Shown in pieces: positions 6,803 to 53,542 of a DNA stretch of 64,000 bases. How positions within the stretch are numbered: position 1 is the stretch's first letter; every line of letters starts with the position of its first letter. The position numbers were made by a program, and so were the translations under genes. The notes under the pieces were generated by a model. It ran no database searches. It saw nothing but the letters and a program-made list of their open reading frames with translations, and was not told the DNA's origin. Location of the stretch: the NCBI GenBank assembly GCA_034435455.1, contig DAOTXL010000102.1:15704-79703 (forward strand), written 5' to 3'. This DNA comes from Anaerolineae bacterium. GTDB taxonomy: Bacteria; Chloroflexota; Anaerolineae; JAAYZQ01.

Positions 6803-6870
6803 GTCAGCCTCCAGTCTCAAGTGTCCAGTGGCAAGTTACGAGTGGCAAGTGGCAAGTTGTCGGTTGATTG

Positions 6871-7638: not shown

Positions 7639-7667
7639 GGTTTGCTCCTTAACCGGTACAGGTCTTG

Positions 7668-8720: not shown

Positions 8721-8902
8721 GACCTTGTCCTTTCTATCGGGATCGTGCAGCGCGTGTCTGTCGTCCAACGCCCATCTCAGGGCATCGGCCGGGTGGGCCC
8801 GGAGGTACACCCCTCGGCTCCGGCCTCGCTTCCCACAGGTTCTTAAAATTATAGATTCCCTCGACCTCCTTGTCAAATCCCCCTGCCGTTTCGGCAGTTG
8901 TC

Positions 8903-22748: not shown

Positions 22749-23169
22749 GCCAGCCGGAAGCAACGACCAGGGCCACCGCGTAGCCGCGTTCGTGCGACAG
22801 GCTGATGGCCCAGTGGCGCAGGCCCTGCTCCTCGGCCAGGGCCAACGCCCGGCCTGACAGGCGGACCCCCGGCTTGCCCCAGGGGTCGGACAACACCTCC
22901 ACCTCTCGCCAGCCGATGCCGTGGCTGCTGAGGTGGGCCAGCCCCACCCCCAGGGCTTTGGAAACCGCTTCCTTGGCGGCCAGGCGAACGGCCAGCTCCG
23001 GCAACCGGTGGCCATAGCGGGCGATCTCCTCTGGCGTGTAGATGCGCGTCAGAAAGCGGTCGCCGTACCGCTCTACCGCCCGCCGCAGGCGCTCTATCTC
23101 CACCAGGTCCACGCCGACGGCCAATAGGGGCGACGCATGCGTCGCCCCTACGCTAGGCTCCTTCGCCAT
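22636..23169 (-). CDS. acpS: holo-[acyl-carrier-protein] synthase with unusual C-terminal tail
   Basis: [23 protein letters not shown]..WxxVEV phosphopantetheinyl transferase motifs. Start taken at the internal ATG 23169. The ORF runs about 40 codons past the AcpS core and overlaps the convergent HAD gene. Confidence 0.65.
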
Positions 23170-24466: not shown

Positions 24467-24505
24467 CTTCTTCTCCTCTTCTCAATTCTAATATCTAATA
24501 CCCGA

Positions 24506-39104: not shown

Positions 39105-39114
39105 GGCCCCTCCC

Positions 39115-39945
39115 CTACTCTTCGTCTCCCTGCGCTTCCGCTTCGGCGCTCAGTTCCGCATCCAGGGCGCGGCTGTCGGCGCCTTCCTCGTCGGCCATCG
39201 CCTCGTCCGGTGCTTCCGGCGGCAGCTCCAGGCCCCGGTCTTTCAGGGCTTCCTCCAGCCGGCCGATGATGGTCTGAAAGATCTTGATCCGTGCCCAACG
39301 CCGGTCGGTGGCTTCGACAATGGTCCACGGCCCCCATTCGGTGTCGGTCCGTTCCAGCATCTCTTCGATGGCGACCAAATAGGCGTCGTATTGGCGGTGG
39401 TGCTCCCAATCCTCCGGCTGCACGTGCCAGCTCTTGAGGGGGTCCTTCTCCAGCATTTTGAAGCGCCGGGCCTGCTCCTCCCGGCTGATGTGCAGGAAGA
39501 ACTTGAGGATCACATAGCCATCATCGGCCAGGGTCCGCTCGAAATCCACGATGTCCCGGTAGCCCTTGCGCCACTCTTCCTCCGGCGTCAGGCCCTCCAC
39601 CCGCTCGACCAGCACCCGGCCGTACCAACTGCGGTCAAAGATGGCCATTTCGCCATAGTTGGGGATCTTGAGCCAGAAACGCCACAGCCAGGGCAGGTGG
39701 GTTTCAAAGGTGCGCGGTGCCTGGATCGGGTAGAGCTTGAAGCCCCGCGGGTCGAGCCGCGAGGTGAGCAGGTTGATGGAGGTGCCCTTGCCGGCGGCAT
39801 CCCAGCCCTCGAAGACGATGATGGTGGGGATCTGGGCATCCCAACAGGCCTTTTCCAGATCGTACAGCCGCCGTTGCAGGCGAGGCAACAGCCGCTTGTA
39901 CTCCCCTTTCGGCAGTTTATGGGTGAGATCGACCTTTTCGAGCAT
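39115..39945 (-). CDS. ppk2: polyphosphate kinase 2 family protein with acidic C-terminal tail
   Basis: Walker A VFEGWDAAGKGT and FDRSWYGRVLVER. C-terminal DEAMADEEGADS..AEAEAQGDEE. Confidence 0.8.
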   Translation of the reverse strand: MLEKVDLTHKLPKGEYKRLLPRLQRRLYDLEKACWDAQIPTIIVFEGWDAAGKGTSINLLTSRLDPRGFKLYPIQAPRTFETHLPWLWRFWLKIPNYGEMAIFDRSWYGRVLVERVEGLTPEEEWRKGYRDIVDFERTLADDGYVILKFFLHISREEQARRFKMLEKDPLKSWHVQPEDWEHHRQYDAYLVAIEEMLERTDTEWGPWTIVEATDRRWARIKIFQTIIGRLEEALKDRGLELPPEAPDEAMADEEGADSRALDAELSAEAEAQGDEE

Positions 39946-39981
39946 AGGGGATACCCTCCCTTTGAAATAACGGTATTCCTT

Positions 39982-40037
39982 GGGCAGCCGCGAGGGCGGC
40001 CCCTACCCTGGGCAGCCGCGAGGGCGGCCCCTACCCT
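39982..40037. repeat. perfect tandem direct repeat 2 x 28 nt (GGGCAGCCGCGAGGGCGGCCCCTACCCT)
   Basis: Read directly. Lies between the PPK2 and CYTH-CHAD genes. Confidence 0.8.
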
Positions 40038-40074
40038 TTTCATCCCTGGGGGTGTGCCAGGGAACAGGATGACT

Positions 40075-42003
40075 CTATAAAACTGCAATGGCCTGGGCTG
40101 CCAGCCGGCTGAGGGTGGCGCTGTTGAACCGCTGCCAGGCCTGAGGAAAGGCCGCCAGCAGACGCTGGAGGTCCGATTGCCTGACGGCCAGGTAGGCGGC
40201 CACGCCGGGGGCAATTACCGGCGCCGGCCGGTCGGGCGAGGGGATCGCGGCGACCTCACCGCCCCACGTGCCCCACATCAAAAAGTCGCGCAGGATGCGG
40301 CTGGCCACCACGGCATCCTGTAGCTCGCCCAGGTGGTCCTGCAGGGCGACGACCTCTTCGATGAGAGCGGGGGTCTCTGGCCCCAACAGTTCGTTCAAGA
40401 ACTCTAGCGTGTAGCGCAGTTGCTTGCAGGCGATGCGCAGGGCGTGGAGCCTGGTGAGGGGCGGGTTGGGGATGCTCACCCACTCGTCGTAGGCGCGGAC
40501 GGCCGCCAGCCGCTCATAGACCGTCACAGGCGCCACGTGGCGCACGCGGCAGGGGCGGGGTTCCCCGTCGTCCAGGGTGATGGGCCGGCTGCCCAGGCCC
40601 TCGGTCTCCACAAATTCGGTAAAGCGCTCCCGGAAGCGGGCATATTTTCCACCATCCAGGTAGGCGAGCATGGCCCGGCGGGCTGCGTCGCGCTGTTCCT
40701 CCAACACGGCCAGAAATCGGTCCAGGCTGCCCCGTTGCGCTTCGGGCAGGGTATCCAGATAAGCCTGGACTCGGGCACGAAAGACATCCAGGTCGCGCAC
40801 TGCGCCCAGCACCCGGCCGGTGCGCCGCAGCCCTTTCAGCAGTGGGGCGGTGACCTGGGGTTCGTAATAGTCGCCAAAGATGCGAAAGGCAGCCCGCATC
40901 CGCCGCGTGGCGACGCGCATATCGTGCAGCGCCTCGATATCCTGGCCCAGCCGTGTGCCCGGTTCGTGGAAGAGCATCCGCCGCCAGTGGAAGCGCAAGA
41001 CCTTGCGCCCCGCCTCGCTCATCAGGTCATCCGGTTCGAGCCCCGGCTTTTTGAGCAGTTCAACCTGGGGAGCCGGTGAGGGGGGGGGAGCTATCGGCAC
41101 CCCTTCGGTGGCGGCCGGTGGTGGCCGGTGGACCTCCACAGGCCCGGCGGCGGGAGCCAGGTTCAGCGCCTGGGGGGGAAAGATGCCCAGCCGCTGTCGG
41201 CGGAAGGCGCTCAGCCAGTGACGAGCGCGGCGCGACGACAGCCCGGCCCGCTCCAGCATCTCGGCGCGGGGCAGGCCGTCGTCCCAGGCCAGCAGCAGAC
41301 GGGCGCGGCGGGCAAGCGCCTCCCGTTCCCTGCTCAGCCGCTCGACGAGGGCCCGTTCCGCAGGGGTCAGACGCGGCTCTGAGCCGGCCGGGGACAGAGC
41401 CAGGGCCCGCTCGAACTTGGAGCGGGGCTCTGGAACCAGGCCCCACCCCGCTTGCAGGTCGGCCACCAGCCGGTTCAGGTCTGCCTGGCTGCCATCGGCC
41501 AGGAGCTCGGCCTCCAGTTCCAGGAAGCTGGCGATGGGTTGGCGTGTCTCGCCCCCGTACACCTCGACGCGGTCCAGGGCCAGTTCGGCCACGGCGCGGT
41601 CGCCGTCATACACCAGACGACAGTGGCGGGTCTGTTCCAGCTCAAAGAGGGGGAGGAGCGGCTCATCGCCGCACAAACGCAGGGCCAGGTCGCGGGCCCG
41701 GCCGGGCGGCCATTCCTGGGGAGGCAGGGGGCCGTCCAGTTCGACCTGATGCTCGGCCCGGCGATGGATCGCCCCGGCGGCGGTGCCCAGGCCCTTGAGG
41801 GTGGCCAGGGTGCGCCCCTCCTGCCGGCGCAACCGGCAGGCATAGCCGCCGGCCAGGATGGCCCGGTCGGCCGTATCCAGGTAGCGGTCGTGGAGCCGGG
41901 TCAGCGAGGCCCGGCCCAGGGTGAATCCGGCCAGCGCCGTCGCTTCCAGCAGGCGCCGGAACGTCTGCTCATCGGGAACGCCGAATTTGGCCTCGATCTC
42001 CAC
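40075..42003 (-). CDS. CYTH domain plus CHAD domain protein (triphosphate tunnel metalloenzyme fused to CHAD)
   Basis: N-terminal MEIEAKF (ExExK triphosphate-tunnel start). C-terminal CHAD helices with conserved His pattern (ALHDMRVATRRMRAAFRIF). Confidence 0.7.
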   Translation of the reverse strand: MEIEAKFGVPDEQTFRRLLEATALAGFTLGRASLTRLHDRYLDTADRAILAGGYACRLRRQEGRTLATLKGLGTAAGAIHRRAEHQVELDGPLPPQEWPPGRARDLALRLCGDEPLLPLFELEQTRHCRLVYDGDRAVAELALDRVEVYGGETRQPIASFLELEAELLADGSQADLNRLVADLQAGWGLVPEPRSKFERALALSPAGSEPRLTPAERALVERLSREREALARRARLLLAWDDGLPRAEMLERAGLSSRRARHWLSAFRRQRLGIFPPQALNLAPAAGPVEVHRPPPAATEGVPIAPPPSPAPQVELLKKPGLEPDDLMSEAGRKVLRFHWRRMLFHEPGTRLGQDIEALHDMRVATRRMRAAFRIFGDYYEPQVTAPLLKGLRRTGRVLGAVRDLDVFRARVQAYLDTLPEAQRGSLDRFLAVLEEQRDAARRAMLAYLDGGKYARFRERFTEFVETEGLGSRPITLDDGEPRPCRVRHVAPVTVYERLAAVRAYDEWVSIPNPPLTRLHALRIACKQLRYTLEFLNELLGPETPALIEEVVALQDHLGELQDAVVASRILRDFLMWGTWGGEVAAIPSPDRPAPVIAPGVAAYLAVRQSDLQRLLAAFPQAWQRFNSATLSRLAAQAIAVL

Positions 42004-42124: not shown

Positions 42125-43912
42125 TTACAGGTTATCAACCCGCGACCGCAGTTGCCCCAACGTGGCGTTGATCGTGCCCAACTCCCCCTCGATCCGGGCC
42201 AGTTTTTGCTGTTCGGCGCGGACAAAGCGGGTGTAGGGTTCGATCGCCTCGCGGAGCCGTTGCAGGCTGTGGGCCAGTTCCCGCTCGAATTCCGCGCTCA
42301 TGGCGGCTATCAACTGATGGCGCAGGTTCTCCAGTTTTTCGTTCAGGTCGTTCTTGGCCCGCCGCCGCCTGGCGGGGATGATGAGGAGGCCCACCACAGC
42401 CAGGGCCCCGGCCGACAGGAGGCCGGTAAAGTCGAGCAGCGCCCCGTGGAGGATGGCCACCAGCAGGGCCCCCAACCCCACCGCCCCTACCTGGCTCAGG
42501 GCCAGCCCCGCCACCGCGTCGCGCACACTCAGGGCCAGTTGGCGGGCCTCGGCCTCGCGGTCGTAGCTCAGCACCACCTCTTTGGCCGCCCGCCCCACCG
42601 AATCGAGCAGCGCCTGGCGGTTGTACTCGAACGTGCCGCCCACCTGGCCGATGATCCGCTCCTCTCCCCGCGGTGCCGGCGAATCGGCCCGCTCGTGCAT
42701 CCTGGCCCGATGGCGCTCCAGGTACTCCAGCGTCGCCTGCCATTGGCGCAGGTCTCTGTCTACCAGCCAATCGATCAGGGTGTGGACCTGGCGTTCGATC
42801 TCATAGGGGGTGTCGGCCACCACCTGCCGCTCGAACTCGCCGCGGATGCGTTGGGTGTTGATCAGGTCCAAGACGCGGGCCAGGCGCAACGTCTCGTCCA
42901 GGTAGGCCATGCCCCGGTTGTTCATAGCCAGCAGCACCTTCTCGATATCGGCCAGGCGGTAGCGAAAGTCGCGCTGCATGTCGGCGCGATAGATCTCGAG
43001 CTGGCCCTCGATGTTTTCGATGGCCTTGAGGTCTTGGGCCAGGAGCGCCAGACGGTGGCGGGCCAGTTCCAGGTAGCCGGCTGCCAGCCGCTCGCCCACG
43101 CCCAGGGGGTTCTGCAGCTTGAGCTGCACCCGGCTCTTTTGATCCAGCGTTTTGAGGATATACACTTCGACCGCCTCGAAGCGGCTGGCTGCCCACAGCT
43201 TTTCCCGCTCGGCGCGGCTTTCGGCCTGCTTGGCCCGCAATGCCAGCCGGGCCGACACCGGAAAGACCTCGGGGGCAAAGCCCAGCAGGGCCAGGGCATT
43301 CTGCCGGATATAGTCCACCACCTGGGCGATCTCGGCCTCCTCCAGCAGGTCGATCTTGTTGAGCAGGATGACCACCTTTTTGCCCCACTCGCGGATGCGC
43401 TCCATGAAGGCCCGTTCGCTCTCGGTGAAGGGCCGGTCGGTGGACGTGACAAAGACCACCAGGTCGCTGCGCGGCACAAATTCCGAGGTCAACTGCTCGT
43501 GGCGGCGGATAATGGCGTTGGTGCCGGGGGTATCCACCAGGTTGATCTCGCGCAGGAACTCGGCCGGATGGGTGACCGCCAGTACCCCTTCTTCTACCAC
43601 CTCCTGGTCAGGGGTATCGCCATGGCGCAGGATATAGATCTGAGCGGTGGTGGGCGTCACCCCCTCAGGCAGGAAGCGCTCACCCAGCAGGGCGTTGATA
43701 AAGGCCGACTTGCCGCTGTTGAACTCGCCGACGATGACCAGCAGGAACAGCTCATCGAGCTGGCGCAGCGACTTTTGCAGCGTCTTCTGGTCCTCCGGCG
43801 TGACCTCAAAGCCGGCCAGGGCCAGTTGCAGGCGCTCCAGGGCCTCTTTTTCATCGGTGAGCAGTTGGGCTTGTTTGCGGTTCAGAACAGTTCGGAGCAC
43901 GGTTACCCTCAC
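42125..43912 (-). CDS. bacterial dynamin-like GTPase
   Basis: G1 GEFNSGKSAFINALLG, G3 DTPG, and TKxD of the dynamin family. Long helical stalk. Hydrophobic paddle near the C-terminus (LGALLVAILHGALLDFTGLLSAGALAVVGLLI). Confidence 0.7.
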   Translation of the reverse strand: MRVTVLRTVLNRKQAQLLTDEKEALERLQLALAGFEVTPEDQKTLQKSLRQLDELFLLVIVGEFNSGKSAFINALLGERFLPEGVTPTTAQIYILRHGDTPDQEVVEEGVLAVTHPAEFLREINLVDTPGTNAIIRRHEQLTSEFVPRSDLVVFVTSTDRPFTESERAFMERIREWGKKVVILLNKIDLLEEAEIAQVVDYIRQNALALLGFAPEVFPVSARLALRAKQAESRAEREKLWAASRFEAVEVYILKTLDQKSRVQLKLQNPLGVGERLAAGYLELARHRLALLAQDLKAIENIEGQLEIYRADMQRDFRYRLADIEKVLLAMNNRGMAYLDETLRLARVLDLINTQRIRGEFERQVVADTPYEIERQVHTLIDWLVDRDLRQWQATLEYLERHRARMHERADSPAPRGEERIIGQVGGTFEYNRQALLDSVGRAAKEVVLSYDREAEARQLALSVRDAVAGLALSQVGAVGLGALLVAILHGALLDFTGLLSAGALAVVGLLIIPARRRRAKNDLNEKLENLRHQLIAAMSAEFERELAHSLQRLREAIEPYTRFVRAEQQKLARIEGELGTINATLGQLRSRVDNL

Positions 43913-43927
43913 AAAAGATCTTCCTGC

Positions 43928-44869
43928 TTACCTCCACAGCCACAGCAGCCGCGGTCGCCGCTCGTCCAGGCGCAGGCCGGCCTCCTGGGCCAGGCGCACC
44001 GCCTCGGCGTACTCCTGGGTGGTGATGGGCCGGTTCAGTGGCGGCAGCCCGTGGGCCCGGTAGCAGGGCCGGTATTGGGCCATCACGTTGATATACGTGT
44101 TGGGCGAGACCTGGTCGCGCAAGAAGCGGACGATCTCGGCCGTGCCGGCCAGGCCTTCGGGCAGGACCAGGTGGCGGACCAGCAACCCCCGCCGGGCCAC
44201 GCCCCGCTCGTCCATCGTCAGGTCGCCCACCTGGCGGTGCATCTCTTTGACAGCGGCCTGGTTGGCCGCCGGATAGTGGCCGATCCCGGAATAGCGCCGG
44301 GCCACCGCGGCATCGGCATATTTCATGTCGGGCATGTAGATGTCCACCACGCCGTCCAACAGGGCCAGCGTCTGGAGCGAATCGTAGCCGCCGCTGTTAT
44401 AGACCAGCGGCAACCGCAGCCCCGCCTCGGCGGCGATGAGCAACCCGGCCAGGATCTGCGGCACTACGTGGCTGGGCGACACCAGGTTGATGTTGTGGCA
44501 GCCCTGGCTTTGCAGGCTGAGCATCATGCGGGCCAGCTCCTCCGGTTCGACCTCGCGCCCCTGGCCCAACTGGCTGATGTCATAGTTCTGACAGTATTGG
44601 CAGCGCAGGTTACACCAGGTGAAAAAGATCGTCCCCGACCCCCCGCTGCCCACCAGCGGGTCCTCTTCGCCAAAGTGGGGGCCATAGCTGGAGACCCAGG
44701 CCCGCTCCCCTGTGTGGCAGCCTGCCTTATCGGGGTCCAGACGGCGATTGATGCCACACGTGCGGGCGCAGAGATCGCACGCTTCCAGCCGGGCGTACGC
44801 CTCTGCCACACGGCGCTTTAGCTCGCCGGAGCGGAGGAGAGCCAGGTAAGCAGGCTCAAACCGTTCCAT
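43928..44869 (-). CDS. radical SAM protein (PflX/COG1313-like activating-enzyme type)
   Basis: CNLRCQYCQN CxxxCxxC cluster motif. Start refined to ATG 44869 (MERFEPAY) so that it does not overlap the exonuclease gene. Confidence 0.65.
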   Translation of the reverse strand: MERFEPAYLALLRSGELKRRVAEAYARLEACDLCARTCGINRRLDPDKAGCHTGERAWVSSYGPHFGEEDPLVGSGGSGTIFFTWCNLRCQYCQNYDISQLGQGREVEPEELARMMLSLQSQGCHNINLVSPSHVVPQILAGLLIAAEAGLRLPLVYNSGGYDSLQTLALLDGVVDIYMPDMKYADAAVARRYSGIGHYPAANQAAVKEMHRQVGDLTMDERGVARRGLLVRHLVLPEGLAGTAEIVRFLRDQVSPNTYINVMAQYRPCYRAHGLPPLNRPITTQEYAEAVRLAQEAGLRLDERRPRLLWLWR

Positions 44870-44913: not shown

Positions 44914-45444
44914 TCACCAACTCACCGCCACCATCCTGACCTGCCAGTTTCGGTCCCGGTACTTGACATGTTTGTGCTGTCGCCCATACTCGTACAACTG
45001 CCGCGTCACTTCCACATCCTGCTGGCAATAGTCCAGGATTTCCTGGATGCGGCCCTCTTTGTACCAGCGCACCGCCTGCAGGCCATCGGCTGACTTGCCG
45101 ATGCCCAACGTGGCGCTCGCCAGGTCGCCCAGGCTGACCCGAAAGCCCAACCGCCGGTAGAGGTGCTCCAGCATGTCCACCGTGGGGAGGTGGTCCAACC
45201 GTTCCTCGGTATAGGCGTGCAGCACCTCATAGTCGAAGCGCAGCACGTTAAAGCCCACCACCAGGTCAGCGGCTTTCAGTTCGGCGATCAGGCCGGCGAC
45301 GGTCCCTTCGGTGTAATGGTGGAAGGCCCCGTCGGCGGTGGAATAGGTCACGGCGGCGGCCAGGCCCAGCTTGCGGATGTTGTGCCGCCCTCCCACCTCG
45401 TCGAAGGTATGTTGGGTTTCGACGTCAAAAAAGACCGTGTTCAT
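44914..45444 (-). CDS. DEDD-family 3'-5' exonuclease
   Basis: Exo I FFDVET, Exo II FNVLRFD, Exo III YCQQDVEVTRQLY-type motifs. 176 aa. Confidence 0.65.
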   Translation of the reverse strand: MNTVFFDVETQHTFDEVGGRHNIRKLGLAAAVTYSTADGAFHHYTEGTVAGLIAELKAADLVVGFNVLRFDYEVLHAYTEERLDHLPTVDMLEHLYRRLGFRVSLGDLASATLGIGKSADGLQAVRWYKEGRIQEILDYCQQDVEVTRQLYEYGRQHKHVKYRDRNWQVRMVAVSW

Positions 45445-45493
45445 CCAACAACTCCAATCTATCCCGACAATGTCACATTGGCGGAGCGGATGA

Positions 45494-45559
45494 GGGACTT
45501 CCCCTCTCCCCTACCCCCTGGCCCCCTTCCCCTCTCCGCCGCGGGAGAGGGGAAGGGGG
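45494..45559. repeat. C/T-rich palindromic element (perfect 16-bp stem CCCCCTTCCCCTCTCC-GCCGCG-GGAGAGGGGAAGGGGG) preceded by a related half-repeat
   Basis: Read directly. Lies in the exonuclease/murE intergenic region. Confidence 0.75.
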
Positions 45560-45751
45560 TTGGGGGATGGGGTGAGGTCAAAGCGAACAACATCCAAGAC
45601 AGATCTGTTCCTGGATTGCTTCTCGCAAGCCCGTTCCGGTTGACCTCATCTCCAGACAGTCGGTGCAAAGTTAACATCTACGGTTTCCAGATATGCCTTA
45701 TTTTATCACGAACCGCCCCCCGGCGCAAGCGAGAGTGCACCTCACAAGCTT

Positions 45752-45780
45752 TTGACGGCTGCCCTCCTTTGGGGTATACT
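45752..45780 (+). promoter_or_regulatory. sigma70 promoter (TTGACG-17-TATACT) for murE
   Basis: TTGACG at 45752-45757, 17-nt spacer, TATACT at 45775-45780. GGAGAAGG RBS before ATG 45807. Confidence 0.5.
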
Positions 45781-45806
45781 GTATGCCGGGCAAACAGGAG
45801 AAGGAA

Positions 45807-47333
45807 ATGGCGCTTCCACTGGCCGGTCTGGTTGACGCTCTACCGCGCGCCGACGTTCGCGGCGACACAGACATTACCATCACCGCTCTCACCTCCGACT
45901 CGCGGCAGGTGAAGCCCGGCAGCCTGTTCGTTGCTTATCGCGGCGTGGCGGCGGATGGCCACGATTTTATCCCCCAGGCCGTGGCCAACGGCGCGGTGGC
46001 CCTTGTGGCCGAGAGGGAGGTGCCGGGCCTGGCGGTGCCGCTCGTTGTCGTGCCCAACGGGCGAGAAGCGCTGGCCTATCTGGCCGCGGCGTGGCACGGC
46101 TTCCCGGCGCGCCGGCTGACCGTCATCGGCGTGACCGGCACCGACGGCAAGACGACCACCTGCAACCTGCTGCACAGCATCCTGACCGCTGCCGGCCGCC
46201 GGGCGGGGCTGATCACCACCGTCAATGCCCTCATCGGCGACCGGGCGTTCGACACCGGCCTGCACACCACCACCCCCGACGCTCCCGATGTGCAACGCTA
46301 CCTGGCAGAGATGGTAAAAGCGGGCATGGAACTGGCCGTGGTAGAGGCCACCTCCCACGGCCTGGAGCAGCATCGCGTTGCTGCCTGCGATTTCGATGTG
46401 GCGGTTGTGACCAACGTCACCCACGAGCACCTGGACATCCACGGCAGCCTGGAGGCCTACCGTCAGGCCAAGGCCACCCTCTTTCGCCACCTGATGGCCG
46501 GTTATCGCAAGCCGGGCATCCCCAAGGTGGCGGTTCTCAATGCCGATGACGATTCCTACCGCTATCTGCGCCCGATCCCTGCCGACCGGCATCTGACCTA
46601 CAGCATCGGCGGCAATGCCGATGTGGTGGCGACCGACCTCTGGCGCTCGCCTTCCGGCAGCCGCTTCGTGGTTCGATCACCCGGCGGCGAGATAGAGCTG
46701 CACACGGCGCTGGTGGGGGACTATAACGTATCCAACATCCTGGCCGCCATGACCGCTGCCCTGGCCCTGGGCGTGCCGACGACGGCCATCCGGCAGGGGG
46801 TATGGGCGGTCCAGGGCGTCGTCGGGCGCATGGAACGGGTGGACGAAGGCCAGGACTTTACCGCCATCGTGGACTTTGCCCATACCCCCAACGCCCTGCA
46901 ACGGGCGTTGGAAACGGCCCGCACCCTGACCCAGGGGCGTGTCATCGCCGTATTCGGCTGCGCCGGCGAGCGGGATGTAGCCAAGCGGGCCTGGATGGGC
47001 GGAATCGGTGCCCGGCTGGCCGACGTGACGGTCCTGACCGCCGAGGACCCCCGCCGTGAGTCGCTGGCGGCCATCCTGGACGAGATGGCGCGGGGCGCGG
47101 CGGGGGCCGGTGCCGTCGAGGGGGAATCGTACTTTTGCGTGCCCGACCGGGCCGAGGCGATCCGGTTCGCGGTGGACCTGGCCCGCCCCGGCGACCTGGT
47201 CATCTGTTGCGGCAAGGGGCACGAGCAATCCATGTGCTACGGCACCGTCGAGACGCCCTGGAGCGAGCATCAGGCGCTGCGGGAGGCGTTACGGCGGCGC
47301 ATTGCCAGGACGATGAAGCGGAGTGAACCATGA
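45807..47333 (+). CDS. murE: UDP-N-acetylmuramoyl-L-alanyl-D-glutamate--2,6-diaminopimelate ligase
   Basis: Mur ligase P-loop VIGVTGTDGKTTT. The DNPR-like motif region distinguishes MurE. 509 aa. Confidence 0.85.
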   Translation: MALPLAGLVDALPRADVRGDTDITITALTSDSRQVKPGSLFVAYRGVAADGHDFIPQAVANGAVALVAEREVPGLAVPLVVVPNGREALAYLAAAWHGFPARRLTVIGVTGTDGKTTTCNLLHSILTAAGRRAGLITTVNALIGDRAFDTGLHTTTPDAPDVQRYLAEMVKAGMELAVVEATSHGLEQHRVAACDFDVAVVTNVTHEHLDIHGSLEAYRQAKATLFRHLMAGYRKPGIPKVAVLNADDDSYRYLRPIPADRHLTYSIGGNADVVATDLWRSPSGSRFVVRSPGGEIELHTALVGDYNVSNILAAMTAALALGVPTTAIRQGVWAVQGVVGRMERVDEGQDFTAIVDFAHTPNALQRALETARTLTQGRVIAVFGCAGERDVAKRAWMGGIGARLADVTVLTAEDPRRESLAAILDEMARGAAGAGAVEGESYFCVPDRAEAIRFAVDLARPGDLVICCGKGHEQSMCYGTVETPWSEHQALREALRRRIARTMKRSEP

Positions 47334-48880
47334 ACCTGTTGTCTGTCTTGTTGGCCCTGTCGCCGGTCCTGATCATCCTGCTCCTGTTGACCCTGCGCCG
47401 CACGGCTGCCGACACGGCAGGCGTCATCGGCTGGGTTGCTGCCGTGCTCGTGGCCTGGCTCTACTTCAAGACGCCACCGGGTGTCATCCTGTCGGCCAGC
47501 CTGGCCGGGGTGGTGGCCTCGCTGCCCATCGCCCTGGTGGTGGCAACCTCGATCTTGCAGGTCACGATCCTGATCGAGACGGGGGCCATCGCCCGCATCG
47601 TGGCCCTCGTCAAGAGCGTGGCCGTGGGCGATCAGGGGGTACAGATCATGCTCCTCAACGTTGGCTGCGGGACGCTGCTGACGGCATTGGGCGCGGTGCC
47701 GGTCTCGATCCTGCCGCCGATCCTGATCGCCCTGGGCTATACCCCCTTTGCGGCCATCGCCCTGCCGGCCATCGGCTACGATGCCCTGTGCACCTACGCC
47801 CTGCTGGGTATCCCGGTGGTTGTCTTTGCCGGCTTTGTCAACCTGCCGGTGGGGGAGGCGGGGGAATATTTTGCCCGGTTCATGCCGGTCATCAGTTCGG
47901 GCATCGCCCTGGGGATGCTGTGGTTGGTGGGGCGAGGGGCCATGCTGCGCCGGGGGTTCCTGCCCGCCCTCCTCGCCGGGCTGACGGCCGGGCTGGTGTG
48001 CATCGGCATGACCGCCGCCAACCTGGTCACCCTCACCGGCATCGCCGCAGGGCTGGCCGTCATCGCCGTGATGCTGGTCTACCTCAGGCTCCGGGGCAGG
48101 CCGTTGCGGGACTGCACGGTCTTGAGCCAGGCCGACCGGGCTGCCGAGCGCCAGCTGCCGCTGTGGGCAGCCCTCTCGCCCTGGATCCTGCTGACCCTCT
48201 GTGCCCTGCTGGTCAACGCCCCCTTTTCCCCCTTTTTCGACCTGACCTTCCGGCGATGGGCCATGCCGGTCGAGATCATCCCCGGCGCCCCGGAAAAGGT
48301 GCGCCCCCTGTGGCAGGCCTATTTCTGGATCCTGGTCAGCACGTTGCTAACCCTGCCCCTGCTCAGGCCGACGCGGGCCCAGATCGTCACCGCATGGCGC
48401 AAGTGGCTGAAGCGAGCGCCGCGGCCGGTGCTGGCCGCTGCCGTCTTTTTCGCCATCGCCTATGTCCTCAACCATTCGGGCAAGGGAGCCGACTGGCGCC
48501 TGGCCGACCCCTCGCGCAACATGATCTATGTGCTGGCCACAGCCGCCGCGGCGACCTTGGGCAAACTCTATCCCTTCGTCGCCCCCTTCCTGGGGCTGTT
48601 GGGCGGCTTTATCAGCGGCTCCGAGACCTCGTCTATCGCCATGTTGACCGCCCTGCACCGCCAGACGGCGGAGCAGATCGGCGCGGACGGGTTGCTCATC
48701 GCTGCTGCCAGCGGCATCGGCGGCGGACTGGCCAGCGTCATCTCGCCGGCCAAGCTGCAAAACGCCTCGGCGGCCATTGACCGCATCGGCGAGGAGGCCC
48801 AGGTTCTGCCCAAGACCTTCGTCATCGCCCTGATCATCACCGCGGTGGGCGCAGGGATGGCGCTGCTGTGGGCTTTTTGA
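47330..48880 (+). CDS. LctP-family (L-lactate/glycolate) permease-like transporter
   Basis: 516 aa with about 12-14 TM segments and a Gly/Ala-rich LctP-like central block. ATGA overlap with murE. Family call from overall resemblance only. Confidence 0.5.
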   Translation: MNLLSVLLALSPVLIILLLLTLRRTAADTAGVIGWVAAVLVAWLYFKTPPGVILSASLAGVVASLPIALVVATSILQVTILIETGAIARIVALVKSVAVGDQGVQIMLLNVGCGTLLTALGAVPVSILPPILIALGYTPFAAIALPAIGYDALCTYALLGIPVVVFAGFVNLPVGEAGEYFARFMPVISSGIALGMLWLVGRGAMLRRGFLPALLAGLTAGLVCIGMTAANLVTLTGIAAGLAVIAVMLVYLRLRGRPLRDCTVLSQADRAAERQLPLWAALSPWILLTLCALLVNAPFSPFFDLTFRRWAMPVEIIPGAPEKVRPLWQAYFWILVSTLLTLPLLRPTRAQIVTAWRKWLKRAPRPVLAAAVFFAIAYVLNHSGKGADWRLADPSRNMIYVLATAAAATLGKLYPFVAPFLGLLGGFISGSETSSIAMLTALHRQTAEQIGADGLLIAAASGIGGGLASVISPAKLQNASAAIDRIGEEAQVLPKTFVIALIITAVGAGMALLWAF

Positions 48881-48887
48881 CCGAACC

Positions 48888-49103
48888 GTGAACGAGACCG
48901 GGGAGAGGATCATGGTCCAAGTCATCTATCGCGACAAGACCTGGGAGGTCAGGCCGGGCAGCACCGTGCGCCACCTCATCGAGAAGGTTGGGCTGAATCC
49001 CGAATCGGTCCTGGCGGTGCGCAACGGTGTGTTGATCAACGAGGCAACCCTGACCGAAGAGGGGGACGTCATCAAACTGGTAGCGGTCGTGTCCGGGGGA
49101 TGA
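48888..49103 (+). CDS. ttuB: ThiS/MoaD-type ubiquitin-like sulfur-carrier protein (TtuB-like), C-terminal Gly-Gly
   Basis: 71 aa, ends ...VVSGG. Beta-grasp-sized. Sits 8 nt after the permease gene. Confidence 0.65.
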   Translation: MNETGERIMVQVIYRDKTWEVRPGSTVRHLIEKVGLNPESVLAVRNGVLINEATLTEEGDVIKLVAVVSGG

Positions 49104-49165
49104 GGGCTGCACGACAGGCCCCCCCATCCATCCGCTGCAAAGCAGATCAACGAGAGGAGGAATCT

Positions 49166-49573
49166 ATGACCATAGAATGGAACGATGAATTGCGGCTGGG
49201 GGTCCCTGAAATGGACGACCAGCACCAAAAACTGATCGCCCTCCTGAACCAGTTTTACGCCGCAGTAGAACGGGGAGAGCGCGAAGAGGGGATCATGGCC
49301 CTCCTGGAAGGAGTGGACCGTTACACCGTTTACCACTTTTCCGCCGAGGAGCAGTTTATGGAGCAGATCGGCTATCCCGACCTGGAGCCCCACCGGAAAA
49401 TCCACCTCGCCTTCCGACAGGAGTATCTGGCCACGGTGGAGCGGCACAAAGGGGGAGACCGGAAGGCGATCCGGGATCTGGTTGCTTCTCTCCTCTCCTG
49501 GCTGTACACCCACATCAACAAGACAGACCGACGGTATGCAACCTTTTTTCAGAAGCAGGCCGGGGGAGGTTGA
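49166..49573 (+). CDS. hemerythrin-like (bacteriohemerythrin) protein
   Basis: HxxxE and HxxxxD/H iron-ligand spacing (DDQHQKL, HFSAEEQFM, HRKIHLAFRQEY, HINKTD). Start at ATG 49166 (MTIEWND). Confidence 0.7.
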   Translation: MTIEWNDELRLGVPEMDDQHQKLIALLNQFYAAVERGEREEGIMALLEGVDRYTVYHFSAEEQFMEQIGYPDLEPHRKIHLAFRQEYLATVERHKGGDRKAIRDLVASLLSWLYTHINKTDRRYATFFQKQAGGG

Positions 49574-49667
49574 TCCCTGGTAGCAGGAGCCGAACTGTCC
49601 CCCCCGGTCCCTTCCTCACTCCGGCGCGGCGCGGGGGCAACGGAACAGGGGTCCAAGGCAAGGTGAC

Positions 49668-50585
49668 ATGAAGTGTAGCAAATGCGGTGGCCTGGCCGTC
49701 ATCAACCTGCGCCAACACCGGCTGCGGCTGTGCTCCGACCATTTTGTCGAATGGTCCATCGCTATGGTCCAACGCACCATCGAAACCTACCGTATGTTCA
49801 CCCCGGCCGAGCGGGTGCTTGTCGCCGTCTCCGGTGGGAAGGATAGCCTGACCTTGTGGGATATCCTGTTGCGGCTGGGCTACCAGGCGGAGGGGTTGTA
49901 CATCGGCCTGGGGATTGACGAGGGGATCGGGTACTCGGCCCGATCGCTGGAGATGTGCCGCAAATTTGTCGCCGACCACCACCCGGCAGCCCTGCTCCAC
50001 GTGGTGGAGATGGAGGGCGAGTACGGGCGGGCCCTCCCCGACCTGGCCCGCCACACACAGCGTGGCCGGGGCAAACCATGCGCCGTGTGCGGCCTGGTCA
50101 AACGCCATGTGATGAACCGTGTCGCCCGCGACGGCCACTTTGCCGCCATCGCCACCGGCCACAACCTGGATGACGAGGCTGCCGTGCTGATGCAAAACAC
50201 CCTGCATTGGCAGGCCGGCTACCTGGCCCGCCAGGCGCCGGTGTTGGTCGAGCGGGAGGGCCTGGCGCGCAAGGTCAAGCCGCTGTGCCGCCTCTATGAG
50301 CGGGAGGCAGCCGCCTATGCCCTGGTGCAGGGCATTGACTATATCTACGACGAGTGTCCCTTTGCCAGGGGCTCGACCACCAACTTTTACAAGGAACTGC
50401 TCAACCAACTGGAGCTCAAATCGCCAGGGGCCAAGCAGCAGTTCTACCTGCAATTCCTGCGGGCGCGCGACGCCGGTCAGGTGACCTTTAGCGAGGCCGC
50501 CGGGGAGGAGCTGCACCCCTGCGCCCGTTGTGGCCAGCCGACTACGGCCGGCGACCTGTGCGCCTTCTGCCGGTTGTGGGAGTAG
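49668..50585 (+). CDS. ttuA: TtuA-type tRNA 2-thiolation PP-loop ATPase with N- and C-terminal zinc ribbons
   Basis: PP-loop VAVSGGKDS, ATGHNLDDEA, N-terminal CxxC..C..H and C-terminal CARCG..CAFCRLWE, matching the TtuA architecture. Confidence 0.8.
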   Translation: MKCSKCGGLAVINLRQHRLRLCSDHFVEWSIAMVQRTIETYRMFTPAERVLVAVSGGKDSLTLWDILLRLGYQAEGLYIGLGIDEGIGYSARSLEMCRKFVADHHPAALLHVVEMEGEYGRALPDLARHTQRGRGKPCAVCGLVKRHVMNRVARDGHFAAIATGHNLDDEAAVLMQNTLHWQAGYLARQAPVLVEREGLARKVKPLCRLYEREAAAYALVQGIDYIYDECPFARGSTTNFYKELLNQLELKSPGAKQQFYLQFLRARDAGQVTFSEAAGEELHPCARCGQPTTAGDLCAFCRLWE

Positions 50586-50659
50586 GCCCCTCCCCCTCCC
50601 TCCGCCCCCCCCCTGAACGGTTCAGGTGCCAGGCACTTTTTTGATCGTCGAAACCAAGC

Positions 50660-53542
50660 CTAGAGGGCCGAGGCTTCCGGAGTCTGGTTTTGTAGCGCCA
50701 GCCAGCGCCTGGCCACCTCCGGCAGCCTGGCCAGCGGGGCGCGCACCGTGGTACACTCCGGCAGGGAGTTGAGGAACATCGGCCCGTACGATTTGGTCAA
50801 GACGCGCCTGTCCAGGACGACGACCACCCCCCGGTCGGTCTTGGCGCGGATCAGCCGGCCAAAGCCCTGGCGGAAGCGCAAGATCGCCTCTGGGATGGCA
50901 TACCGGGCAAAGGGGTTGTCATAGGTCTCGGAGCGGGCGGCAAAGATCGGGTCGTCGGGCACGGAGAAGGGCAGGCGGACCAGCACCAGCACGCTCAGCG
51001 CCGGCCCGACCACGTCTACCCCCTCCCAAAAGCTGCGCGTGCCCAGCAGCACCGCCCGGGGGGTGGTGCGGAAATTTTCCAGCAGTTGCACCCGCGAGGT
51101 GCCTGCCCCCTGCTCGTAGAGCACGATCCCGGCCTCGGCCAGGGGGCGGGCAATGGCCTGCGAGGTGGCCCGCAGTTGGGAATAGGAGGTGAACAGCACC
51201 AGCGCCCGGCCTTCGGTGGCGCGGCACAGGGCCAACAGCACCTCCTCCACCGTCTTCTGATAGTAGGGCTGGTTGGGCTCCGGGATGTCGGTGGGCAGGT
51301 AGAGGAGGGTCGAGTTCTTGTAGTCGAACGGGGAACCGACTGCCAGTTCGTCCGCTTCCCAGGCGTTCAGCCGCTCGCGGAGAAAGTCGAAGCGGTTGTC
51401 GGTGGTCAGCGTGGCCGAGGTGAGGATGACCGACTCTTTGGCATGGAACAGGTGCCGTTCCACCAGTTTGCCCACGTGCAGCGGCGCAGCGTGGAGGGTC
51501 ACCCGCCCGTCCTGGGCCGAAATGCTGGCCCAATAGATAGCCTCGTGGGACGGTTCGGCGATGCAGGCATTGATCTGTGCCCGTAGCTCGCCCAGGCGGG
51601 CGAGATACCCGCCACAATCCTGGATCAACCCCTCCAGGTCCGGGATGTCGTAGCGGTCCAGTTCCCCCAGGCCGCCGATCAACTGCTCCAGGTCGCCGAG
51701 GATCCGGTAGAGCTGGGCCGCCAGATTATCCCAGCTCATCTCCACCCGGCTCCAGGCCGGCTGGACCCGCTGGCCGCTGGTCAGGCGAACCCGCCGGTCG
51801 TACTCACCCTGCCCGGGGCTGTGTTCCTGCAAAAAGTCGCCCAGGATGTTGAAAAAACTGTAGGCGTTGGTCAATGCCGCTTCCACCTGGCGCTGCAGCT
51901 CGCGGACGTGGCTCTCCAGCACAGCCCACTCTTCGGCGGGGACCCTGCCCCGGCAGTGGGAGAGGAGATCGCTCAGGAAACCGCCGTAGCGGCGGGCCCC
52001 CATCGGCCGGACCAGCTCGTTGAGCACCCGTTCCACGGCGGCCTGGTCGGCCTCGAAGCTCAATTGGCGGGTGACGCTGTCCTCCAGGTGGTGGGCCTCG
52101 TCTACGATAAGGTAGCGGTAATCGGGCAGGACCCGGTTCTCGGTGGCCACGTCCGAAAGGAGCAGGGCATGGTTGACGATGACCAGGTGCGCCCGTTCGG
52201 CGGCACGCCGGGCACGGTAAAAGAAGCAGCGGCCCCGCTCCCGGAAGCGGCAGCGTTCCAGGGTACAGGTATCGCTCTCGGCCGAGATCTTGTTCCACAG
52301 CACCTGCTCGACCGGATCGGGCATGAACAGCTCATCCCGCTCGCCGGTTTGGGTGCTGGGCAACCAGACCAGTACCTTGGCCAACATGCGCATCTCCTCC
52401 ACCGAGCTGACGCCCGCCTGGCGCAGGCCGGCCAGCCGCCGCTGGCAGAGATAGTTGTTCCGCCCTTTGAGCACCGCCACCCGAAACTCGAAGGGCAGGA
52501 GCTTTTGCAGGTCGGGGGTGTCTTTGCGAAAGAGCTGGTCCTGCAGGTTGATGGTATTGGTCGAAACGACGACCCGCTCGCCGTTGAGGTGGGCAAAGGT
52601 GACGGCAGGCAACAGGTAGGCCAGGCTCTTGCCGGTACCGGTACCGGCCTCGACCAGCAGGTGTTGTTGTTTGTTGAAAGCGTTGGCCACAGCCCGGAGC
52701 ATCTCCACCTGCTGGGGACGATGCTCAAAGCCGGGAAAGTGGCGGGCAAAGGGGCCGCCTTCCTCCAGCATGGCGGCCAGTTCGTCCACGTTCAGGGCCC
52801 TGGGCCGGGCGGCGCGGACCAGTTCCTCCTCTTCCGAGTCTGTGGCAAAGAGCGGCCCCAACGCCTCCTCCCTCGAATCGAACCGGGCGGCCAGTTGCTG
52901 GCCGATGGCCCCCCGGAAGGCGGTCCGCGTCTGTTCCCGCTCCAGGTCACGGAACACCTCCCGCAGCGGCCAGTCCACCGTCCTGGCCAGGCGGTTGATC
53001 TCCTGGAGGATGGCCGGCGGCAGGTGGGAGGCCTGTTCCAGCAGCGCCACAAACAGGTCCTTGGCGGCCAGCGCATCCTCCAGGGCGCGATGGGTGCTGA
53101 GGGTGGGCAACTCGAACTCCTGGCACAGCCTGGACAGGCTATAACGGGCGGCGTGGGGCGCCAGGATGCTGGCCAGCTCGAAGGTGTCCACCACCGGGTT
53201 GTCCAAGGACAGGTCATGGCTCCGCAGGAAATCCAGGTCAAAGTGCACGCTATGGCCCACCAGCGGGTGGCTGCCCACGAAGCGGCGCAGTTCGTGGGCC
53301 ACCTGCCTGAAGCGGGGAGCGCGGTTCACCTCGTCGTGGCCGATGCCGGTCAACTGCTGGATGGGAAAGGGGATGGGCCGGCCGGGGTTGACCACGGTGG
53401 ACCAGGTGTCGAGCACCTGGGCCTGGAGAGAGCCCTCGTCGGTAGAGAGGCGAAAGCGGACGGCGCCAACTTCCAGGATGGCATCGCGCCGGGGGTCAAG
53501 GCCCGTGGTCTCGATGTCCAGGGCCACGCAGGTTCGATTCAT
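50660..53542 (-). CDS. dinG: DinG-family ATP-dependent helicase with N-terminal DnaQ-like 3'-5' exonuclease domain
   Basis: Exo motif VALDIETTGLD at the N-terminus. Helicase motif I GTGKS and DEAH box LIVDEAHHLED. 960 aa. Confidence 0.8.
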   Translation of the reverse strand: MNRTCVALDIETTGLDPRRDAILEVGAVRFRLSTDEGSLQAQVLDTWSTVVNPGRPIPFPIQQLTGIGHDEVNRAPRFRQVAHELRRFVGSHPLVGHSVHFDLDFLRSHDLSLDNPVVDTFELASILAPHAARYSLSRLCQEFELPTLSTHRALEDALAAKDLFVALLEQASHLPPAILQEINRLARTVDWPLREVFRDLEREQTRTAFRGAIGQQLAARFDSREEALGPLFATDSEEEELVRAARPRALNVDELAAMLEEGGPFARHFPGFEHRPQQVEMLRAVANAFNKQQHLLVEAGTGTGKSLAYLLPAVTFAHLNGERVVVSTNTINLQDQLFRKDTPDLQKLLPFEFRVAVLKGRNNYLCQRRLAGLRQAGVSSVEEMRMLAKVLVWLPSTQTGERDELFMPDPVEQVLWNKISAESDTCTLERCRFRERGRCFFYRARRAAERAHLVIVNHALLLSDVATENRVLPDYRYLIVDEAHHLEDSVTRQLSFEADQAAVERVLNELVRPMGARRYGGFLSDLLSHCRGRVPAEEWAVLESHVRELQRQVEAALTNAYSFFNILGDFLQEHSPGQGEYDRRVRLTSGQRVQPAWSRVEMSWDNLAAQLYRILGDLEQLIGGLGELDRYDIPDLEGLIQDCGGYLARLGELRAQINACIAEPSHEAIYWASISAQDGRVTLHAAPLHVGKLVERHLFHAKESVILTSATLTTDNRFDFLRERLNAWEADELAVGSPFDYKNSTLLYLPTDIPEPNQPYYQKTVEEVLLALCRATEGRALVLFTSYSQLRATSQAIARPLAEAGIVLYEQGAGTSRVQLLENFRTTPRAVLLGTRSFWEGVDVVGPALSVLVLVRLPFSVPDDPIFAARSETYDNPFARYAIPEAILRFRQGFGRLIRAKTDRGVVVVLDRRVLTKSYGPMFLNSLPECTTVRAPLARLPEVARRWLALQNQTPEASAL

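Follow-up and report, generated by a model that had tools for sequence, protein, structure and literature searches.

A bacteriohemerythrin gene lodged between ttuB and ttuA in one species of Anaerolineae

We analyzed a 64-kb stretch of DNA (the window) from an uncultured Anaerolineae (Chloroflexota) bacterium in which ttuB and ttuA are separated by a hemerythrin gene. The explanation that we judge probable is that the locus is a standard ttuB-ttuA module, serving 2-thiolation of tRNA U54/T54, into which a passenger hemerythrin gene has been relocated or acquired. Comparison with related loci indicates that the gene arrived as a ~554-bp block, very recently and in a single species. The three-gene arrangement is real and probably has no special meaning, because the hemerythrin was inserted recently in a single species and is found elsewhere in every relative examined. 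The original prediction had named the three products as a TtuB-type carrier, a hemerythrin and TtuA, and these identities proved correct, with matches to Pfam ThiS, NCBIfam NF033749 and PDB 5gha, respectively. It had also suggested that the hemerythrin protects or gates the sulfur relay. That functional coupling gained no comparative support: the block occurs in a single species, it is absent from a collinear sister lineage, and the closest relatives of the hemerythrin reside at another locus.

Identity of the three proteins

All three genes were confirmed on the + strand at 48888-50585. The last of them, ttuA (49668..50585), encodes a 305-aa protein that matches Thermus thermophilus TtuA (PDB 5gha/5b4e) end to end (E ~3e-82), with 49% identity over the full length. 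In the Thermus enzyme, Ser55, Asp59 and Asp161 are the ATP-binding/catalytic residues, C130, C133 and C222 ligate the [4Fe-4S] cluster, and K137 desulfurizes TtuB-COSH (PMC9821441, PMC7138817). The PP-loop S55GGKDS60 and D169 of the protein studied here align with Thermus S55, D59 and D161, while C138, C141, C230 and K145 occupy the columns of C130, C133, C222 and K137, at which the alignment is invariant. Both zinc fingers (C3/C6/C22/H25 and C285/C288/C298/C301) are kept, and the TtuA-specific N-terminal LIM domain (Pfam TtuA_LIM_N, PF22082) scores 41.5 bits (cut-off 27). Judged by these residues and matches, the protein is a member of the TtuA family, a predicted PP-loop, [4Fe-4S]-dependent tRNA 2-thiouridine synthetase whose target is presumably U54.

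The small protein encoded by ttuB (48912..49103, + strand) is a 63-aa ThiS/TtuB-type sulfur carrier. It is recognized by Pfam ThiS (36.4 bits, cut-off 22.5) and matches TtuB, SAMP2 and PF1061 in the PDB over its whole length, the match to TtuB 5ztb_E having an E value of 1.9e-6. Its C terminus reads VAVVSGG, followed directly by the stop codon, and the terminal GG aligns with the GG of TtuB, SAMP2 and PF1061. A single-sequence AlphaFold model (pLDDT 72, pTM 0.51) has the order strand-strand-helix-strand-strand-strand, and its top Foldseek matches in the PDB are TtuB 5ztb and 5gha (TM 0.69-0.75), with ThiS and ubiquitin next. The model thus predicts the beta-grasp fold that the size of the protein had suggested, with TtuB closest in structure. 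Alignment with the Thermus proteins, proposed earlier as a check on both names, bears them out for carrier and enzyme alike.

By analogy with Thermus, TtuC, an E1-like enzyme encoded elsewhere, would adenylate and thiocarboxylate the 63-aa TtuB. The resulting TtuB-COSH would dock at the free iron of the [4Fe-4S] cluster held by TtuA C138, C141 and C230; the PP-loop (S55, D59 and D169) would adenylate C2 of U54; and K145 would promote release of the sulfur, which would replace the adenylate. TtuC and TtuD are both absent from the 64-kb window, and a scan of 48 open reading frames in it detected none of the domains ThiF/MoeB, JAMM, rhodanese and cysteine desulfurase, in agreement with the prediction that neither an E1 nor a JAMM gene would be present.

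The gene between carrier and enzyme (49166..49573, + strand) encodes a 135-aa protein that is filled by a hemerythrin domain and has no other domain. It scores 120.5 bits with the NCBIfam bacteriohemerythrin model NF033749 (cut-off 84) and can be aligned from end to end with DcrH-Hr (2avk; E 1.2e-17). All seven di-iron ligands (H20, H57, E61, H76, H80, H116 and D121) are present, in columns that are invariant across 18 hemerythrin homologues. We also considered an RIC/YtfE-type di-iron Fe-S repair protein, which would combine ScdA with a hemerythrin-like domain in ~220 aa; no ScdA or RIC family match was obtained, and this candidate was rejected because the ScdA domain is missing. On its ligands and length, the protein is a canonical stand-alone di-iron bacteriohemerythrin that putatively binds oxygen.

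Between the two strains in which the gene occurs, five synonymous and four non-synonymous changes give a pN/pS of ~0.24, and the gene is intact with all ligands in both. Since it is intact, has kept its ligands and has a pN/pS of this order, the hemerythrin appears to be maintained and probably expressed, and not debris. Its composition (GC 57%, GC3 0.71, against a GC3 of 0.81-0.89 in neighboring genes) might suggest a foreign origin; however, the homologues likewise lie 4-6 points below their own loci, and for that reason composition is a weak sign of foreign ancestry and was set aside.

The locus and its inserted block

The gene order on the + strand is murE, an LctP-family permease gene, ttuB, the bacteriohemerythrin gene and ttuA. 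The UDP-MurNAc-tripeptide synthetase gene murE (45783..47333; gene callers place the start at 45807, giving 508 aa) matches TIGR01085 with 495.5 bits and contains Pfam Mur_ligase domains. The permease gene (47330..48880) matches Pfam Lactate_perm with 189 bits and TIGR00795 with 172 bits, the latter below the cut-off of 341. For ttuB, the longest open reading frame begins at GTG 48888 (71 aa); the likely start is the ATG at 48912, preceded by GGAGAGGA, and the TtuB homologues of the relatives are 63 aa long in all cases. The longest hemerythrin frame begins at 49100 (157 aa), and the likely start is the ATG at 49166, preceded by GAGAGGAGGA. The same two starts were chosen independently by gene callers on public contigs of identical sequence, so that the lengths of 71 and 157 aa given originally, which came from the longest frames, are better replaced by 63 and 135 aa. 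The junctions need amending in part. The start of lctP does overlap the stop of murE (ATGA), an overlap that we read in the sequence; the 8 nt given for lctP-ttuB are in fact 31 nt, and ttuB and the hemerythrin gene do not overlap by ATGA but are 62 nt apart. The gap between the hemerythrin and ttuA is 94 nt.

The only sigma-70-like promoter match detected in a scan of 45300-50900 (TTGACG-17-TATACT, 45752..45780, + strand, a consensus match only) lies 5' of murE. The sole convincing terminator-like site of the murE-ttuA region lies 3' of ttuA, where a hairpin (50624-50638) is followed by a T-run (50624..50648 overall, + strand). With the sole promoter-like site before murE and the sole terminator-like site after ttuA, the pattern fits co-transcription from murE to ttuA without proving it. 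Neither terminator-like nor promoter-like sites were found around the hemerythrin gene; since it lies between ttuB and ttuA with no such site nearby, it is probably transcribed with both and would be co-expressed with the oxygen-labile TtuA. The 94-nt spacer before ttuA contains no terminator or promoter match, and a structured RNA there was rejected, its predicted fold being no stabler than that of shuffled sequences (z = +1.4). Scanning the complete window for Rfam families and tRNAs gave no matches. Subunits of a 2-oxoacid:ferredoxin oxidoreductase are encoded 40 kb from the locus.

How usual is this arrangement? We surveyed 80 GTDB species-level loci centered on TtuA proteins 49-66% identical to ours, drawn from more than 599 pattern matches. 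A TtuB match was present in 73 of them, and in 68 of these ttuA follows it at a distance of at most ~110 nt; the remaining five TtuB-positive loci comprise two with larger gaps (L011 and L070) and three with negative computed gaps, which are artefacts. None of the 80 has a hemerythrin within 6 kb of ttuA (phmmer E<=1e-3; family HMM E<=1), so the prediction was right that a hemerythrin in this position is foreign to described or typical ttu loci. The coupling to murE and lctP, regarded at first as a further unusual trait of the operon, turned out to be confined to a small clade, with neither gene near ttuA in any of the 80 loci. It likewise appears to be a clade-specific gene order.

The nearest relatives place the insertion more closely. 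In a sister lineage (L091) whose TtuA is 91% identical, the order is exo-murE-lctP-ttuB-ttuA, with 7 nt between the last two genes and no hemerythrin; its exo, murE, lctP, ttuB and ttuA products are 85-92% identical to those of the window. In relatives with TtuA identities of 90%, 87% and 85%, ttuA immediately follows ttuB; the 87% relative has murE-ttuB-ttuA, lacking lctP, and in the 90% relative a histidine kinase gene lies upstream. Contigs were read for five of the nearest TtuA relatives (79-91% identical), and none of them has a hemerythrin in its ttuBA unit.

When the window is aligned with the sister lineage, the difference is one clean block of ~554 bp (49106..49659, + strand, the edges being uncertain by a few nucleotides) that contains the hemerythrin gene together with a ribosome-binding site of its own. 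The ttuB-hemerythrin-ttuA order was found on six contigs that are 100% identical across the 1.7-kb region and in one further strain with ~97% identical DNA, so that the insertion is confined to one species represented by two strains. No repeats or target-site duplications were found flanking the block, and its spacers are not repeated elsewhere in the 64-kb window. The flanks of the block show no similarity to those of other hemerythrin loci; what is shared with these is restricted to the coding region and ~10 nt. Other, unrelated insertions were found at the same junction, a ~360-nt repeat element in one locus (L087) and a gene for a 194-aa membrane protein in another (L011), and we conclude that the ttuB/ttuA junction tolerates insertions.

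The related hemerythrins point to a different conserved home. The nearest ones outside the species are only 66-74% identical, and wherever the upstream flank is readable, their genes follow those of a 4HBT thioesterase and a histidine phosphatase, with one exception (L097/L098), in which the gene follows a response-regulator/histidine-kinase gene. The downstream gene, wherever readable, is GH1 or FGGY. TtuA or TtuB was found within 3.5 kb in none of 80 hemerythrin-centered metagenome loci, and the 4HBT-histidine phosphatase locus is itself absent from the 64-kb window. By this synteny, the inserted gene may derive from, or at least resembles, the gene of a 4HBT-histidine phosphatase-hemerythrin-GH1/FGGY locus.

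Weighing the alternatives

Two alternatives concern the identities of carrier and enzyme. The PP-loop protein might be another member of the TtuA/Ncs6/TtcA group, such as an s2U34 enzyme resembling NcsA or an s2C32 enzyme resembling TtcA, that uses the adjacent carrier. Target specificity is not readable from sequence, many Anaerolineae are not thermophiles, whereas s2T54 has been described mainly in thermophiles (PMC6225789), and the score with the NCBIfam equivalog NF049949 (262.4 bits) falls short of its cut-off of 450. That model, named tRNAsynTtuAPyrococ, is of the Pyrococcus type, and the bacterial Thermus enzyme matches better; the shortfall lowers confidence in exact equivalence and leaves family membership unaffected. 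The scores themselves, at 262 bits for TtuA against 117 for NcsA, 73 for TtcA and 37 for TilS in NCBIfam, and 280 and 248 for TtuA against 83 for NcsA (6scy) and 22 for TilS in the PDB, speak against such a reassignment and set the protein apart from the NcsA/Ncs6 and MnmA clades and, as originally predicted, from those of TtcA and TilS. So do the end-to-end identity to the characterized Thermus enzyme, which extends over both zinc fingers and the LIM domain, and the adjoining TtuB-like carrier, an arrangement that we take to be that of Thermus as well. We therefore hold a target other than U54 to be very unlikely. For the small protein to be a ThiS or MoaD carrier of thiamin or molybdopterin synthesis would be more surprising still, to the point of being hardly credible. 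The best NCBIfam names are indeed ThiS models, both below cut-off, and Pfam assigns only the general ThiS family; however, no thiamin or Moco genes lie nearby, the homologue recurs beside ttuA throughout most of the survey, and TtuB, in its complex with TtuA, is among the top matches by sequence as well as by fold.

The alternative of most biological interest is that the hemerythrin is a functional ttu accessory, which would bind, scavenge or sense oxygen and thereby shield or gate the [4Fe-4S] cluster of TtuA when the cell is transiently exposed to oxygen. The cluster is oxygen-sensitive (PMC6225789, PMC9821441), and Campylobacter jejuni HerA/HerB are reported to protect the activity of the [4Fe-4S] enzymes Por and Oor in oxygen-exposed cells (PMC4257069). 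The hemerythrin has all its di-iron ligands, its gene is intact in two strains, and it sits inside an apparent transcription unit, between two genes that are nearly always contiguous. Recurrence of the three genes in independent lineages was nevertheless not seen in any of the 80 TtuA loci, the five nearest TtuA relatives or the 80 hemerythrin loci; similar hemerythrins have their different, conserved locus; and thousands of TtuA homologues of the same class do without one. A cytoplasmic oxygen binder would not be specific to TtuA, a 2-oxoacid:ferredoxin oxidoreductase also being encoded 40 kb away, and unrelated sequences have entered the same junction elsewhere. In the collection of papers searched, none mentions TtuA and hemerythrin together. 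We consider an accessory role unlikely. Recent adaptive recruitment would be compatible with the missing conservation, and we regard it as quite unlikely that the gene was recently drawn into the ttuBA unit as a factor dedicated to guarding or gating the TtuA cluster against oxygen. The comparative data do not support the hemerythrin as a member of the sulfur relay, and the passenger reading, under which the insertion would be neutral, is preferred.

These observations present ttuB-ttuA as a tightly coupled gene pair, widespread in Anaerolineae and other phyla, whose junction occasionally takes up unrelated insertions, the hemerythrin here and a repeat element or a membrane protein gene elsewhere. 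They also caution against reading function from the gene order of a single genome. If the guard role were true, the hemerythrin would be the first accessory factor to protect an Fe-S-dependent tRNA-thiolation enzyme from oxygen, and its very recent recruitment would offer an evolutionary snapshot of how an accessory factor is enlisted.

Comparison with known systems

The closest characterized counterpart is TtuA-TtuB of Thermus thermophilus (5gha, 5b4e and 5ztb), in which s2T54 thiolation is the work of a PP-loop enzyme with a [4Fe-4S] cluster and of a thiocarboxylate carrier that resembles ubiquitin. Common to both enzymes are the PP-loop, the three Fe-S cysteines, the equivalents of K137 and D161 and both zinc fingers, and in Thermus, too, a TtuB-like carrier gene presumably adjoins ttuA. 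What distinguishes the present system, known from its sequence, is the hemerythrin gene that this one species has between ttuB and ttuA. Typical ttuB-ttuA loci of Anaerolineae and Chloroflexota have the same gene pair in the same order and orientation, with a gap of ~0-110 nt and without the hemerythrin; downstream, close relatives have a gene for a 240- to 250-aa protein and a GAF/HisKA_3 kinase gene, whereas DinG is encoded here.

For the hemerythrin itself, DcrH-Hr of Desulfovibrio vulgaris and the bacteriohemerythrin of Methylococcus have the same H-H-E-H-H-H-D ligand set and a length of ~135 aa; DcrH-Hr is a chemoreceptor domain, whereas the protein described here stands alone. HerA/HerB of C. 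jejuni are likewise single-domain hemerythrins in a host with oxygen-labile Fe-S enzymes, and provide the only precedent known to us for a hemerythrin acting as the guard proposed here; protection was seen there in cells exposed to oxygen (PMC4257069).

Gene layout and transcription of the locus

Five co-directional genes occupy the forward strand between 45.7 and 50.6 kb of the window: murE (45783-47333; TIGR01085, 495 bits), a permease gene of the LctP family (lctP, 47330-48880), a gene for a small ThiS-family protein (ttuB), a bacteriohemerythrin gene, and ttuA, which encodes a PP-loop protein. The permease, named at the family level, scores 189 bits against Pfam Lactate_perm and falls below the TIGR00795 cut-off. 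A DinG-type helicase gene (50660-53542, reverse strand) converges on the ttuA side. The original prediction had used the longest ORFs as gene coordinates, but later starts are favored both by ribosome-binding sites and by independent gene calls. In our reading of the sequence, good ribosome-binding sites precede ATG 48912 of ttuB (GGAGAGGA) and ATG 49166 of the hemerythrin gene (GAGAGGAGGA), and calls made on identical public contigs give a carrier of 63 aa, a hemerythrin of 135 aa, and a TtuA of 305 aa. The spacers are therefore 31 nt (lctP-ttuB), 62 nt (ttuB-hemerythrin), and 94 nt (hemerythrin-ttuA). Of the ATGA and 8-nt junctions originally described, the ATGA overlap of murE and lctP is real and is the sole overlap among these genes, while the revised lctP-ttuB and ttuB-hemerythrin spacings replace the closer ones.

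Within 45300-50900, the single promoter-like match lies ahead of murE, and just one terminator-like hairpin followed by a T-run is convincing, located 3' of ttuA; transcription of all five genes as one unit is plausible. The predicted fold of the 94-nt spacer is no more stable than that of shuffled sequence.

A 195-aa antisense ORF (48926-49513, reverse strand; GC3 0.73) spans ttuB and the hemerythrin gene and was preferred to the true forward-strand genes when genes were picked simply by GC3. This ORF is in all likelihood spurious, an example of how heuristics based on ORF length can go astray when GC content is high. Elsewhere, a 905-aa ORF (23042-25759, forward strand) has no Pfam match and a GC1 (0.83) above its GC3 (0.68), atypical of all neighboring genes; it may encode a low-complexity protein or be no real gene in that frame.

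Distribution and source of the hemerythrin insertion

We surveyed 80 loci from GTDB species representatives (Anaerolineae, Thermoflexia, Actinomycetota, Syntrophobacteraceae, and other groups) whose TtuA is 49 to 66% identical to that of the window. A TtuB homologue was present in 73, and in 68 of these the distance from the end of ttuB to the start of ttuA was about 110 nt or less, the two genes often overlapping; the other five comprised larger gaps in L011 and L070 and three negative computed gaps that are artifacts. No hemerythrin was found within 6 kb of ttuA in any of the 80 (phmmer; HMM of 29 family members, E<=1), which bears out the original remark that a hemerythrin between carrier and enzyme does not belong to the described ttu loci. 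MurE and LctP were likewise absent nearby in all 80. Their linkage to ttuB and ttuA is shared by a metagenomic relative whose TtuA is 91% identical. This 91% relative has the order exo-murE-lctP-ttuB-ttuA, with a 7-nt ttuB-ttuA gap and proteins 85 to 92% identical to their window counterparts. In alignment with the window, a single block of about 554 bp (49106-49659) is cleanly absent from this relative; it comprises the hemerythrin gene plus the adjoining spacers. In the 90%, 87%, and 85% relatives, ttuB also lies directly upstream of ttuA, preceded by a histidine kinase gene or by murE without lctP. The ttuB-hemerythrin-ttuA arrangement is thus not conserved, and as a three-gene system it does not recur in the lineages surveyed.

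Across ttuB-hemerythrin-ttuA, the window is matched at 100% identity by six public contigs, which come from several samples, and a second strain (GCA_037439345.1; about 97% DNA identity) has the same murE-lctP-ttuB-hemerythrin-ttuA/DinG order. The insertion is therefore characteristic of one species and postdates the divergence of that species from the 91% lineage. When the two strains are compared, the hemerythrin gene shows five synonymous and four nonsynonymous differences (pN/pS 0.24), similar to murE (0.28) and lctP (0.19), with ttuA lower (0.03). Although the counts are small, the gene appears to be maintained.

The roughly 97% strain (L182) also carries, at 2275-2839, genes for a PemK toxin and its 80-aa partner. 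They separate the genes for a dynamin-like GTPase and a radical SAM protein, which adjoin in the window (43912-43928), so this toxin-antitoxin insertion is strain specific. In the window (38241-42003, reverse strand), two tandem PPK2 polyphosphate kinase genes adjoin a CYTH-CHAD gene in a polyphosphate-metabolism cluster.

Other unrelated DNA has entered the ttuB-ttuA junction elsewhere. In one contig of the 87% relative (L087), a MITE-like element with a palindromic repeat, about 360 nt long (5640-6000), is inserted exactly between the two genes and flanked by duplicated CATGAAATG; another contig, L088, encodes the identical TtuA and lacks the element. In an Anaerolineae MAG (L011, JBAWAP010000281), a predicted membrane protein of 194 aa is encoded there (525-1109). 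The window itself has a G/C-rich palindromic repeat, CCCTACCCCCTGGCCCCCTTCCCCTCTCC ... GGAGAGGGGAAGGGGGTTGGGGGATGGGG, upstream of murE (hairpin 45509-45572 in intergenic 45445-45780) that is related to a copy inside the L087 element (85% over 48 nt). The 3' flank of ttuA is rearranged in the window's species as well: synteny with L087-L093 breaks directly after ttuA (50586-53542), where the window and L182 have the convergent DnaQ-DinG helicase and the 85-91% relatives instead have an unannotated gene of 238 to 253 aa and a GAF/HisKA_3 histidine kinase gene.

Conspecific copies excluded, the nearest hemerythrins are only 66 to 74% identical. Wherever flanks can be read in the loci of this class that we examined (five by protein look-up and 12 from a metagenome scan), the hemerythrin gene follows genes for a 4HBT thioesterase and a histidine phosphatase (His_Phos_1) and precedes one for GH1 or an FGGY kinase. 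This neighborhood is conserved in the hemerythrin loci L094-L113, the sole exception being L097/L098, with a response-regulator/histidine-kinase gene upstream instead. None of these home-locus genes occurs in the window. MAG PO_4 (GCA_036172315.1) encodes its hemerythrin (71%) and TtuA (62%) on separate contigs (JASFBC010000137 and JASFBC010000298), and none of 80 hemerythrin-centered metagenome loci (31 to 72% identity, 361 kb in total) has TtuA or TtuB within 3.5 kb. The hemerythrin gene is somewhat GC-poorer than its neighbors (GC3 0.71 versus 0.81 to 0.89), but low GC is typical of the family, so this is only weak evidence for transfer.

Identity and role of the hemerythrin

The 135-aa protein scores 120.5 bits against the bacteriohemerythrin model (cut-off 84), and its alignment with DcrH-Hr (E 1e-17) extends from end to end. 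Ligands H20, H57, E61, H76, H80, H116, and D121 are all present and invariant in 18 homologues, marking the predicted product as a standard bacteriohemerythrin; identity as a RIC/YtfE repair protein was rejected.

The locus is best read as an ordinary ttuBA module joined by a stand-alone bacteriohemerythrin that was recently relocated or acquired and probably now shares its transcript. The original prediction went further, proposing that the hemerythrin may protect the sulfur relay from oxygen or gate it. Such a role is chemically plausible, the TtuA cluster being oxygen labile, and has an analogy in the Campylobacter jejuni hemerythrins that protect [4Fe-4S] enzymes. However, it finds no comparative support in the loci surveyed and no precedent for TtuA in the literature searched, and it is not obvious that any protection would be confined to TtuA; we consider it improbable. 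The locus is a species-specific gene-order variant of the known ttuBA kind.

The window also encodes, 40 kb from the hemerythrin, three 2-oxoacid:ferredoxin oxidoreductase subunits (6260-8876, reverse strand; POR_N/PFOR_II, TPP_enzyme_C, and POR gamma), oxygen-labile Fe-S enzymes of the kind protected by C. jejuni hemerythrins.

Comparison with the Thermus system

Domain searches agree with the original prediction that the window contains no E1 or JAMM gene, and they detected no rhodanese or desulfurase gene there either. Both tests proposed for the core proteins, namely, whether the PP-loop protein belongs with TtcA or TilS and whether the small protein lacks a beta-grasp fold, favor the original observation. 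Along its entire length, the 305-aa protein can be aligned to the TtuA proteins of Thermus thermophilus (5gha/5b4e; 49% identity, E about 3e-82) and Pyrococcus horikoshii (E 1e-72), its matches to NcsA (6scy; E 2e-22) and TilS being far weaker. NCBIfam scores rank identically (TtuA 262, NcsA 117, and TtcA 73 bits), although 262 bits misses the Pyrococcus-type TtuA equivalog cut-off of 450. The residues essential in Thermus TtuA (S55, D59, C130, C133, K137, D161, and C222; PMC9821441, PMC7138817) correspond to S55, D59, C138, C141, K145, D169, and C230, and both zinc fingers are intact in the alignment. The 63-aa carrier ends in GG, matches Pfam ThiS, and retrieves TtuB, SAMP2, and PF1061 in a PDB sequence search; its single-sequence predicted model (pLDDT 72) has beta-grasp topology, with TtuB chains (5ztb and 5gha) as best PDB fold matches (TM 0.69 to 0.75). 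By analogy with Thermus, specificity for position 54 and dependence on TtuC would be predicted. In sequence and structure, the TtuA and TtuB of the window agree with the Thermus system on every point open to in silico testing.
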